DNA from: a virus
Taxonomy: Duplodnaviria; Heunggongvirae; Uroviricota; Caudoviricetes
IMG/VR virus record: IMGVR_UViG_2874945390_000012
Reading direction: 5' to 3' (one strand)
Length of the DNA stretch: 33,382 bases
The stretch's first letter is position 1. Every line of letters starts with the position of its first letter. This document shows positions 5,395 to 8,349 of this stretch, in pieces. The translations under genes and the position numbers were made by a program. A model generated the notes under the pieces. That model was given only the letters and a program-made list of their open reading frames with translations, searched no databases and was not told the origin of the DNA.

Positions 5395-6455
5395 GTCACC
5401 TCCCCGATGGTGATAAGCTCATCCACATCACTGGTGGTGTCCTCCCCGATGTTAAGGAAGTAATCCGTGATGCCGGACGTCATACCGATGGCCGTGCGCA
5501 GCGAGGACACCGGCAGCGTCTGACCGGGTGCCAGTGTCTTCTGTAACGCGGTCAGGTTTGCCCGGACGGCGCTCCTGTTCGCCAGGCTGTCCGGTGTCAG
5601 ACGGATGGATATGCTGACTTTCTTCAGCCTGACCTGTACCGGCCAGACCTCAATGCCGCCCGGTTTACCCACCATCACGCCCGTGGCCGGGTGTTTGTGG
5701 CAGAACAGATACTGCTCCATTGTCTTCAGGTCTTCGCGGGTTGGCACGATGTTTTCCCGGTCATCATAAAGCCATGCCAGCCCGACCGTGCCGGGGCCGT
5801 GCCATGCATCCCACGCCCACGCGCGGCTGACGCCCGGCACTTCACGCGCCCATATCACGTAGTCATGCAACGCGCCGCCTGTCGGTGGATTGCGGCGCAC
5901 ATACAGCAGACGGTCCAGCAGCGCTGCGATGGATTCAGTGTCTGCGCCACCGGTGATGCCACCTTCAGCCACCGCGCCTGTGCTGGCCGTTCCGGGCAGC
6001 GGGGACAGCAGGGTGAGTACGGCACCGGCAGCAAGATTGCCCTCCACACCGGCTTCTTCAGCCTGCACGATGACGGTGACCTCGCCGTTCTGCACCTCGC
6101 CGGACGTGAGTACCTGATACACCTGGTTCGTGTCGGACTGCATCCGGGTTTCTGCCGGAAGGGGGGACTGACTGGTGAAGGTCACCCGCCCGCTGGCAAA
6201 GGTGGCCTGCTTGCGGATAACGCCTTCATACTTTGCTGTTTTGATAATGGTTTCATCATCAGACGTGGTGGACGGGATTATCTGGTCCTTAATCCAGCTC
6301 TGATGGTCGTATAAATCCCGGACCTGACTGCTGAATGACACGTTCAGCGCCTGCTCAACACTGACAGGCGGCAGCTTTTGCAGGCCGAGTTCATACGCAA
6401 TATCTTTTTCGCCGTCGGCAATCAGTTTGCCCAGCGTGGGGATTTCATACGGCAT
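5379..6455 (-). CDS. Baseplate J-like protein (Mu gp47-like)
   Basis: 358-aa ORF; position after the gp46-like gene, typical size for baseplate J. Confidence 0.75.
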   Translation of the reverse strand: MPYEIPTLGKLIADGEKDIAYELGLQKLPPVSVEQALNVSFSSQVRDLYDHQSWIKDQIIPSTTSDDETIIKTAKYEGVIRKQATFASGRVTFTSQSPLPAETRMQSDTNQVYQVLTSGEVQNGEVTVIVQAEEAGVEGNLAAGAVLTLLSPLPGTASTGAVAEGGITGGADTESIAALLDRLLYVRRNPPTGGALHDYVIWAREVPGVSRAWAWDAWHGPGTVGLAWLYDDRENIVPTREDLKTMEQYLFCHKHPATGVMVGKPGGIEVWPVQVRLKKVSISIRLTPDSLANRSAVRANLTALQKTLAPGQTLPVSSLRTAIGMTSGITDYFLNIGEDTTSDVDELITIGEVTWLTA

Positions 6456-6858
6456 TAATGGTGGCCTCCCATCGACGGGTGATTTCGATTCTGAGTGTGG
6501 TTTTGTCCGGGCGGGTTAACACCACCAGAAAGGCAATACGGTCAGGAATGATGATGCTGGCCGTGACGGTGGCGTTACGGGCGTAACCGGCACGCAGAAG
6601 CGGCTGCATGGACAGCCGCGCGTAATCTTCCACGCGCAGGCGGACATCTTCCGTCAGCTTTTCACGCTCAAGCAGCCACAGGCGGGAACCCCACGAAAAA
6701 TCGCTGTACGTGTCGCCCGGCCAGCCGCGCGGGTCGCCGGAGCCGTCAGGAATGACATCATCGTCATCAGCGCGGGCATCGGTGAAAAGGCAGATAAGAA
6801 CCTGAGTGACCAGCCCCTCATCCCGTGAGAGGCCGTTATGGGTGACGGTGATGTATTC
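6445..6858 (-). CDS. Baseplate protein, Mu gp46 / P2 gpW-like; open frame lacks a canonical start (possible frameshift)
   Basis: The stop-to-stop frame reads EYITVTHNGLSRDEGLVTQVLICLFTDARADDDDVIPDGSGDPRGWPGDTYSDFSW..., protein-like throughout, but the first ATG/GTG/TTG in frame is the GTG at 6633. The upstream gp45-like ORF overlaps it out of frame. Confidence 0.6.
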   Translation of the reverse strand, partial: EYITVTHNGLSRDEGLVTQVLICLFTDARADDDDVIPDGSGDPRGWPGDTYSDFSWGSRLWLLEREKLTEDVRLRVEDYARLSMQPLLRAGYARNATVTASIIIPDRIAFLVVLTRPDKTTLRIEITRRWEATINAV

Positions 6859-7373
6859 TCATTGTCGCCGTCCTTATGAATGTGTTCGCTGAATGATTTA
6901 CCCTTGATTCTGACATCTTCAGTAAATTCACAGGGACCGACGAATTTCATTTGTTTACCGATAATATTCAGCAGTTCGTCGGCAGTGAGATTTACCGTTT
7001 TCCCTGAAAAGTCTAATTGTTCTCCTGTGATTTCAATGACGCCGTTTTCCTTCAGGGTGATGTGTGATTTGCCGTCCCGGTGATACACCCTGACATCGCC
7101 GGGGGACAGTCCTTTCGGGCGACATCGCTTGTCTTCCACCGCGATGGCAACCAGCCCGTCACGCCGTCCGCCAACGGCCAGCACAATGGCTTCAGAACCT
7201 TCCGGCGGAACGGACGTAAACCCGTAGTTCTGGAAGCGTTCCACGTCGTCATCGGTGGCATCTGCCAGCGTCTGAATTTGCAGGTTCTGCCGTGCCAGAC
7301 CGTCAGACACCAGGCGGACAACAGCGCGGTCAACCATCAGTCGCAGGCGGCGGGCAATTGCGTTTAATCCCAT
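6654..7373 (-). CDS. Baseplate spike/assembly protein (Mu gp45 / P2 gpV-like) with an aberrant C-terminal extension
   Basis: N-terminal ~165 aa are protein-like (MGLNAIARRLRLMVDRAVVRLVSDG...). The last ~70 aa (SHGMRGWSLRFLSAFSPMPALMTMM...) are low-complexity and overlap the gp46-like frame, consistent with a 1-nt indel near 6860-6885. Confidence 0.7.
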   Translation of the reverse strand: MGLNAIARRLRLMVDRAVVRLVSDGLARQNLQIQTLADATDDDVERFQNYGFTSVPPEGSEAIVLAVGGRRDGLVAIAVEDKRCRPKGLSPGDVRVYHRDGKSHITLKENGVIEITGEQLDFSGKTVNLTADELLNIIGKQMKFVGPCEFTEDVRIKGKSFSEHIHKDGDNENTSPSPITASHGMRGWSLRFLSAFSPMPALMTMMSFLTAPATRAAGRATRTAIFRGVPACGCLSVKS

Positions 7374-8349
7374 GTGGCCACCGCCTTTGTTTTTTTCGTC
7401 TTCGCTTTCATTTCCGGCATGTCCAGTGATTCAGGCGGAACCAGCGCCAGAACCGTCATCCTCCCCTGTGCGCCATCCGTCCATGTCACCCCGGATATCA
7501 GCCAGGTGGTTTTCAGGTTCTGAATGCTGTCGTCGATATCGACAAGGCGGTTGGTCTGCCACAGCGGGCCGCTGTCGCCCTGTTCGCGCCAGCCTGCCAC
7601 CGTGATTTCCGTCGTGCGGGACTCTCCCAGCATCCGGGCTTTGTACCATTCCCCGCGAATGCTGGCCCCGCCCACCATCGGGGCAGGCTGGCTGTCCCAC
7701 AGTTTGCCACGGGCACTGGTGGTGCCCTTGATGATGTACTGGCTGTTACGCTCCCGCCAGCTGAAGCGCCCACGGGCGGCGAGGATATTTTTCCCAGCAC
7801 CAGTGACACGCCCGCGCGAACGGAAGAGGCGCGGGTGATAATCAGGTTACCCGTGCCGTCAGACGTCAGCAGAACGCCGCGCTGTTTTGCCAGCCGGTCG
7901 AGCAGTTCAAAGCCCGTTTCACCCTGTTCCAGAACGACAGACGCAAATGCCTCCCCGGTCGGGGTTTCCGTGATGACGGTTATCCCGAACGGGCGGCAGA
8001 CATCAGCCGCCACCTGTTCAAGCCGCACGCCTTTCCATTTCCCGGACGAATGCACCACAGAGCAGTCCACCAGGTCGCCGGTTTTATCGCGCCCCATGAC
8101 GCGAATCTCCACGTTTTCAGCCTCATAGCCGGGAATAAAATCATCGATATACCCCGTCAGCACGGTATCCGCGCCCAGCCTGACCGTGCAGGGTTGCCCC
8201 TCACGAATCACGCGCGGTGCCGCCGCTGACCAGCGGGTTGTCACACTGAGTTCAAACTCACCGGCAATCGCCTTCAGGGAACGGCTGACGGACATTTCCG
8301 TCCAGCCTTCCCACAGTTTGCCGTCAACGGTAAGAATCACGGATTCCAT
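7364..8349 (-). CDS. Baseplate hub protein (Mu gp44 / P2 gpD-like), interrupted by a frameshift at an A5 tract (~7786-7791)
   Basis: N-part frame (8349 down to ~7790) reads ...TSDGTGNLIITRASSVRAGVSLVLGK, then degenerates into Ser/Arg/Ala-rich sequence. The other frame from ~7792 to 7364 reads NILAARGRFSWRERNSQYIIKGTTSARGKLWDSQPAPMVGGASIRGEWY...WLISGVTWTDGAQGRMTVLAL, protein-like. Confidence 0.7.

Follow-up and report, generated by a model that had tools for sequence, protein, structure and literature searches.

The stretch of DNA analysed here (the window; 33,382 nucleotides, IMG/VR virus record IMGVR_UViG_2874945390_000012) is a full-length Mu-like transposable myovirus prophage, encoded on the minus strand, in Shigella boydii. 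The window is the sequence of CP026836.1 from position 2179961 onward, to which it was identical at every place checked, and S. boydii is the organism listed for CP026836.1 in a paper. We describe three lesions in the baseplate genes of this prophage, at positions 6445-8349. An earlier reading made from the letters alone (the sequence-only reading) had noted frame discontinuities in the gp44-, gp45- and gp46-like genes of this region, and they are present there.

Positions 6300-8500 were searched by megablast against 5,426 complete E. coli genomes, of which 49 matched. The match in these relatives spans 2343-2346 bp, compared with 2201 bp in the window, and is broken into three pieces (30 of the 30 records listed). 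Intact gp44-like (356 aa), gp45-like (178 aa) and gp46-like (150 aa) genes are annotated in the two closest records examined. We mapped the lesions by base-level alignment to intact relatives, including the prophage of E. coli FDAARGOS_943 (L003), which is 99.5% identical. E. coli and Shigella prophages served as comparators because there is no close reference phage: a megablast search against cultured phage genomes gave no match to the region, and the best cultured-phage protein match for gp47 was 57% (Klebsiella phage Kp4866-3), with Vibrio Mu-like phages at about 48-50%.

The gp44-like gene, corresponding to the baseplate hub gene P of Mu, is a pseudogene at 7364..8349 on the minus strand, with the Pfam domains GpP-like_1st, Phage_GPD and Gp44-like_2nd. 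Its first frame runs from 8349 to 7513 and encodes 278 aa, the first 187 of which are native, and its C-terminal part lies in the -1 frame, from 7792 to 7364. By alignment, the frame is lost after residue 187 at a 1-bp frameshift that contracts a run of six adenines (A6) to five (A5) at 7788..7792 (minus strand). The same frameshift point is found in a 251-aa Shigella gp44 allele, P0017 (…LVLGKISSPPVG…). According to a protein alignment, the second frame equals the native C-terminal part of gp44 minus 28 residues. The corresponding 84-bp (28-codon) in-frame deletion has its junction at 7668..7675 on the minus strand, where one copy of the direct repeat GTGGGCGG is retained.

The gp45-like gene, which corresponds to Mu Q and encodes a baseplate spike or assembly protein V (Pfam Phage_Mu_Gp45), is now a 239-aa open reading frame (ORF) at 6654..7373 on the minus strand. 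It is native for 176 of 178 residues (7373 to 6846) and continues with 63 aa of out-of-frame read-through into gp46. The junction of a 57-bp deletion lies between the two genes at 6846..6854 (minus strand), again with one retained copy of a direct repeat, ACATCACCG. The deletion takes the last two codons and the stop codon of gp45, together with codons 1-15 of gp46 including its ATG; it thus accounts for both the read-through of gp45 and a gp46 without a usable start. The remaining body of the gp46-like gene (Mu V; Pfam GP46) extends over 6445..6852 on the minus strand without a start codon, the first in-frame ATG, GTG or TTG being at 6633.

A deletion between direct repeats of 8-9 bp that leaves one copy in place is a classical outcome of replication slippage or microhomology-mediated events. 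The 84-bp and 57-bp deletions are thus read as slippage deletions at 8-9 bp direct repeats, and the 1-bp contraction of the A6 run in the hub gene gp44 would have been the first of three baseplate knock-outs. Uninterrupted orthologues exist in close relatives and the lesions can be located by alignment, as is characteristic of pseudogenes. The sequence-only reading had proposed that each gene needs a single-base change to restore one coherent ORF. This applies to the A6-to-A5 change, one of the three focal lesions, and not to the 84-bp and 57-bp deletions: a single inserted base would give one gp44 ORF that is still 28 codons short, and gp45 and gp46 cannot be restored as two genes by any single base.

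It could be argued that the focal frame breaks are artefacts of systematic indel errors in the assembly. The source record is apparently a long-read-only assembly, the single-base differences between window and relatives are all losses on the window's side, and the record has five further private 1-bp deletions elsewhere in the prophage. A citing paper describes a neighbouring accession of the CP026836.1 series as PacBio sequence from the historical Shigella set of Kim et al. 2018, which suggests the same platform for CP026836.1. However, the exact 278-aa and 239-aa broken ORFs occur in at least nine independent Logan read-set assemblies (ERR200293, five samples; ERR200294; SRR4180506, two samples; SRR5024211), and the same two ORFs are present twice in the source chromosome, once in each of two prophage copies. 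Contigs of ERR200293 and ERR200294 show 100% identity with the window across 3.85 kb, whereas those of SRR4180506 and SRR5024211 differ from it by 10-11 single-nucleotide polymorphisms (SNPs) and zero gaps. The A5 state, moreover, is found in about 95 further contigs, and direct repeats of 8-9 bp at the boundaries of the two longer deletions are unlike sequencing error. Since the focal lesions recur in assemblies of diverged strains, they are inherited and not assembly errors. From the sequence comparisons they are almost certainly genuine mutations, and an origin as artefacts is very hard to sustain. A 4-bp deletion in the Stf-like fibre gene, described below, was likewise reproduced in independent sequencing.

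A different explanation is that the gp44 frameshift is read through, with -1 slippage at G GGA AAA (7795-7789) yielding a full-length hub protein by non-canonical translation. The 1-bp deletion itself created this sequence, which has the form of a slippery heptamer for programmed -1 frameshifting (X XXY YYZ) in the zero frame and leads into the native C-terminal part of gp44 in the -1 frame. A downstream hairpin can form, and a virion needs few copies of the hub. The downstream fold has a minimum free energy of -40.6 kcal/mol and a z of only -1.9, with 6 of 200 shuffles folding as well, and the sequence downstream of A5 is that of the intact relatives except for one substitution at 7711. The two-frame arrangement was not conserved among the full-length relatives examined at the site (L001, L002 and L003), all of which have an in-frame A6 and a single ORF. 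The A5 allele resides instead in an insertion sequence (IS66)-truncated remnant of the element; head and early genes are missing from this remnant, and selection therefore does not act on the allele there. Slippage would, in addition, be unable to repair the 84-bp and 57-bp deletions. Programmed frameshifting, which we regard as most improbable, was rejected on the confinement of the two-frame state to the remnant-type A5 allele and the unremarkable fold.

The remnant just mentioned is represented in the source genome by the second copy of the element (L005; CP026836.1 4457279-4477998), whose IS66 truncation lies immediately upstream of gp36 and which adjoins type VI secretion system (T6SS) genes. 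This type of remnant is also interrupted by another insertion sequence, and it occupies a fixed locus beside the T6SS gene icmF in many Shigella genomes (L047-L056). In other Shigella genomes and read sets the IS66 position is the same, and the right host flank is identical in L005 and L047-L050. The remnant gp44 allele P0017 is carried on about 95 contigs from S. dysenteriae and S. boydii. It has the A5 frameshift point without the 84-bp deletion and lies next to intact gp45 and gp46 genes, which makes the frameshift older than both deletions. We conclude from these alleles that A5 is old in the remnant lineage, and that the 84-bp and 57-bp deletions are by this comparison younger and specific to this S. 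boydii sub-lineage. As a separate observation, the tape-measure gene of L005 is split by a further private 1-bp deletion, at the equivalent of window position 10079.

Comparison of the two copies in the source genome identified a putative recombination (gene-conversion) tract of about 5.9 kb, at 4456..10340 (no strand assigned), in which they are 100% identical except for one base at 10079. There are zero substitutions over 4456-10078, compared with a divergence of 3-4% in both flanks, and the tail-fibre genes of the two copies are different. Within the tract, wherever full-length relatives and remnants have different alleles, the window has that of the remnants: at 4465, 4477, 4549, 4579, 4591, 6043, 7711 and 8122, in the A5 run, and over 9770-10307. 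The outgroup L002, where it covers these sites, shows the remnant-type alleles of the window to be derived. Just outside the tract the alleles are of the full-length type (4444, 4455, a 12-bp indel at 10341-10352, and 10391-10430). The lesions cluster because all of them sit on this one tract, which was probably imported from the remnant. It seems quite likely from the allele distribution that a patch of about 5.9 kb from a dead remnant recombined into a full-length prophage, and that the focal lesions arrived by conversion. In the proposed sequence of events, a dead remnant would first have gained A5; the 84-bp and 57-bp deletions would have been added to it later, in this S. boydii sub-lineage; and homologous recombination or gene conversion would finally have pasted the tract into an incoming full-length prophage.

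The shared lesions could instead reflect replicative transposition of an already defective element, without any gene conversion. Mu-type transposition needs only A, B and the element ends; here the two ORFs and the end sequences are intact, and the surroundings of the present copy have been reshaped, with about 13 kb between dsbG and fepB replaced and no 5-bp target duplication. Against this stand the divergence of the two copies outside the tract and their dissimilar tail-fibre genes. Other Shigella strains, which have neither the 84-bp nor the 57-bp deletion, furthermore carry the second copy with its IS66 truncation at an unchanged locus; this copy therefore predates the first copy and cannot be its recent transposition product. 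We consider transposition an improbable source of the shared lesions and retain gene conversion from the remnant.

Exchange between copies may not be limited to this tract. An in-frame deletion of 51 codons in the sheath gene (440 versus 491 aa; window-equivalent positions 13338-13491) is present in the L005 remnant of the source genome, and the same deletion occurs in SRR4176997 (L022) on a full-length background of the first-copy type with head genes. Its occurrence on two backgrounds suggests that lesions move between copies and that exchange is repeated. Separately, ten substitutions fall within 120 nt at 9743-9862; they are private to the two source-genome copies, no other relative having them, not even the remaining strains with the lesions, and the cluster looks like a micro-patch from an unsampled donor. 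A broader proposal is that remnants act as a reservoir of lesions, with gene conversion 'poisoning' newly lysogenised Mu-like prophages as a recurrent and possibly selected route of domestication in Shigella; we regard this as speculative and rather unlikely.

Beyond the baseplate region, five private 1-bp deletions affect three genes, in which indels were called relative to FDAARGOS_943 (L003). The Stf-like second tail-fibre gene (2123..3171, minus strand) has a private C4-to-C3 contraction at 2827-2829 in addition to a shared 4-bp CCAG deletion at about 2126-2136. The gp37-like gene (intact length 203 aa) has C5-to-C4 contractions at 14206-14209 and 14290-14293, within 14206..14293 on the minus strand. 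In gemA, shortened here from 183 to 164 aa, the changes are TT to T at 26005 and C4 to C3 at 26063-26065, within 26005..26065 on the minus strand. The sequence-only reading had named the Stf-like gene, and tentatively gemA and the gp37-like gene, among those needing a single-base change. The shared 4-bp deletion is widespread, with the 350-aa form occurring in S. flexneri, S. sonnei and E. coli, and this distribution identifies it as real. The indel lies in a short CCAG/TCAG tandem and converts a 468-aa fibre into 350 aa plus a 117-aa ORF (1773-2126), both states being common among Shigella and E. coli prophages.

At all five private sites the break is confined to one assembly, a pattern that the focal lesions do not share. 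The resulting fragments of 127, 222, 110 and 164 aa (P0026, P0041, P0056 and P0147) each occur on one contig only, that of the source record (NCBI). The gp37-like gene is intact at 203 aa in 12 of the 12 other contigs with an identical neighbouring virion-morphogenesis protein, as is the 183-aa GemA in 23 of the 23 other contigs with an identical upstream gene. Over 2366 nt, the short-read contig SRR8186698 (L026) differs from the window by no substitutions and only by the two C5-to-C4 gaps. All five changes are deletions, four of them contractions of C/G runs, and four of the five lie in two pairs with spacings of 84 and 60 nt (P = 6e-4 for uniformly placed sites). Indels without substitutions, in one direction and clustered, fit consensus error better than neutral decay, and on this comparison we lean towards reading the five private deletions as consensus errors of the long-read assembly.

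The alternative, that these five deletions are real and very recent mutations of a decaying prophage, is possible though somewhat doubtful. The prophage is already tail-dead, so further changes would be neutral, and one of the five changes, TT to T, is not in a long homopolymer. The absence of the deletions from every other contig with identical neighbouring genes, their common direction and pairing, and the two indels with zero accompanying substitutions against L026 argue the other way. The sequence-only reading had set prophage decay against a systematic indel error profile; neither accounts for all the sites alone, as independent assemblies indicate decay at the focal sites and consensus error is probable at the five private ones. 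The comparison with the same prophage in related strains that it recommended separates the two classes, the focal lesions recurring in diverged strains and the private deletions in none. We assign a probability of roughly 80% to the complete account, in which genuine baseplate lesions would have been imported by conversion and the peripheral 1-bp deletions would mostly be consensus errors.

Several points weigh against this account. The direction of transfer is read from allele patterns, which make it firm for A5 and the most economical reading for the deletions. The 84-bp and 57-bp deletions are confined to this sub-lineage in the comparison, and either copy may have been the one in which they arose. 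Short-read contigs break at the tract edges, so that in other strains the lesions may lie in either copy, and the ending of these contigs at copy boundaries leaves the private sites unlinked to the clone that carries the lesions. Partial activity could persist in a hub that is 28 residues short or in a gp45 extended by a foreign tail. With regard to consensus error, the host coding DNA that flanks the prophage is free of 1-bp frameshifts over 15 kb, and 9.5 kb of a further record from this accession series are free of private indels; both observations favour real deletions, as the error rate would need to rise locally. The 17 kb of host flank as a whole contains three 1-bp deletions, all intergenic, and two 4-bp deletions, with zero 1-bp coding frameshifts.

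Several further differences were considered as lesions and rejected. A 160-bp 'deletion' at 22459 occurs in both states among intact relatives; it is an indel polymorphism between gp27 (DUF3486) and the gene upstream of it, and the genes overlap in the short form. The T6 run at 27180 reads alike in the window and in other contigs, the frameshift annotation there belonging to the comparator L003. The apparent indels relative to L003 at 9859-10055 and 26437-27077 are mosaic replacement segments. These segments are unrelated to the FDAARGOS_943 prophage and common to other Shigella copies, the former covering the 3' part of the tape-measure gene and the latter small early-region ORFs of 111 and 120 aa. 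In the host flank, citT (four bases missing near the 3' end), ybdR (a 4-bp GATC deletion) and ybdK (an in-frame stop) are disrupted by comparison to E. coli (L020 3296-3301, 6304; L011 5643-6761). These disruptions and the intergenic deletions represent either typical Shigella pseudogenisation or further assembly error.

The remainder of the element is organized as a Mu-like prophage, with all long ORFs on the minus strand in the gene order of bacteriophage Mu. Transposase A (31286-33382, minus strand; 698 aa; Pfam PF09299 Mu-transpos_C and PF02316), a DDE transposase, lies near one end beside a MuB-like AAA ATPase (30260-31210, minus strand; 316 aa; Pfam PF09077 Phage-MuB_C). From the high-coordinate end, the early and head genes are a Ner-like helix-turn-helix protein, transposase A, MuB, kil, gam, gemA, mor, endolysin, gp27, terminase, portal, F, protease and gpT (major head protein). 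The tail genes continue with gp36, sheath, tube, gp41, tape measure, DNA-circulation protein, gp44, gp45, gp46, gp47, gp48, fibre and Tfa, followed by the second Stf-like fibre gene, DUF4376, Com and, at the low-coordinate end of the gene order, Mom (240-977, minus strand). The late-gene Pfam families likewise occur in Mu order (PF07030, PF04984, PF10618, PF23746, PF07157, PF05954/PF22255, PF06890, PF07409, PF04865, PF10076, PF10122 and PF25680). The transposase A protein has an exact counterpart that is indexed in 274 blocks of the collection, and ten loci with an identical transposase had ten different left flanks, that is, insertions at many unrelated host sites. The lineage is found at up to four places per genome in the 49 matching E. 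coli genomes, and additionally in many Shigella genomes.

This copy lies between a 5' fragment of host dsbG (1-113, plus strand), next to which the right end of the prophage (…GCGCGCTTTA, minus-strand reading) starts at 114, and a 3' fragment of fepB (left flank: L011 8700-8760, CP026836.1). The two genes are about 13.3 kb apart in E. coli, where the interval ordinarily holds citR, ybdN, ybdM, ybdL, hcxA, ybdD, cstA and entHABEC. A 5-bp target-site duplication was not found at this copy, the flanks being CTGAG (right) and GGCAG (left), both on the plus strand. Flanks without a target duplication, together with the dsbG and fepB fragments, point to a Mu-type adjacent deletion or rearrangement after insertion, or to recombination between two insertions, which would have removed the enterobactin synthesis genes. 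The ORF spanning the junction of dsbG and the prophage, which we sought in other assemblies in order to follow this copy, was found only in the source record.

In Mu, tail and baseplate formation requires the genes P (gp44), Q (gp45) and V (gp46). With all three broken, the prophage should not be able to build a baseplate and tail, or infective particles, unaided. Transposase A, MuB, Mor, lysis and head genes are intact ORFs, those of MuB, Mor, lysis and head being of the same lengths as in relatives, so that induction with transposition and lysis is still possible. The expected phenotype, judged from gene content, is therefore non-infective and not necessarily non-inducible; of the 'decaying, non-inducible prophage' considered in the sequence-only reading, the decay holds and the lack of inducibility does not follow.

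The element shares gene order and protein families with Mu-like myoviruses such as Mu, D108, SfMu and Vibrio phage martha 12B12, and, as in these, its insertion sites vary between strains. Unlike Mu, it has no invertible G segment or gin, and carries instead a lambda-Stf-like second fibre and the DUF4376 gene after Tfa. It further differs from the known Mu-like phages in having no close cultured phage in the collection searched and, at this copy, no 5-bp target duplication. E. coli and Shigella are known to carry defective prophages ('grounded' or cryptic) in which frameshifts, short deletions and insertion sequences inactivate structural genes while other modules stay intact (PMC6379469; Asadulghani et al. 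2009, cited there). That resident prophages recombine with remnants is also well documented (PMC6379469). The present prophage resembles these cases in its inactivated structural genes, its retained modules and its recombination with a remnant. It differs from them in that diagnostic alleles identify both the donor and the recipient of the lesion tract. In the better-known case, reported by De Paepe et al. 2014 (cited in PMC6379469), phages gain useful DNA from remnants, whereas the transfer considered here disables the prophage. The five private contractions resemble the homopolymer indel errors of long-read sequencing, being confined to one record with the ORFs intact elsewhere. The three focal lesions do not, since they are found in short-read assemblies and two of them measure 57-84 bp.

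For annotation, our results imply that the baseplate genes should be treated as pseudogenes and that the five private breaks need confirmation from reads before they are taken as decay; they illustrate concretely how pseudogene counts in Shigella are inflated by long-read-only records. The focal decay is ordinary prophage biology, and the mildly unusual point is that the lesions were apparently imported from an older dead copy. Lesions common to two copies need not mean shared descent of the whole elements. The allele pattern provides a clean, datable example of a lesion tract that would have passed from an old remnant to a full-length prophage, and it bears modestly on how prophages become grounded.

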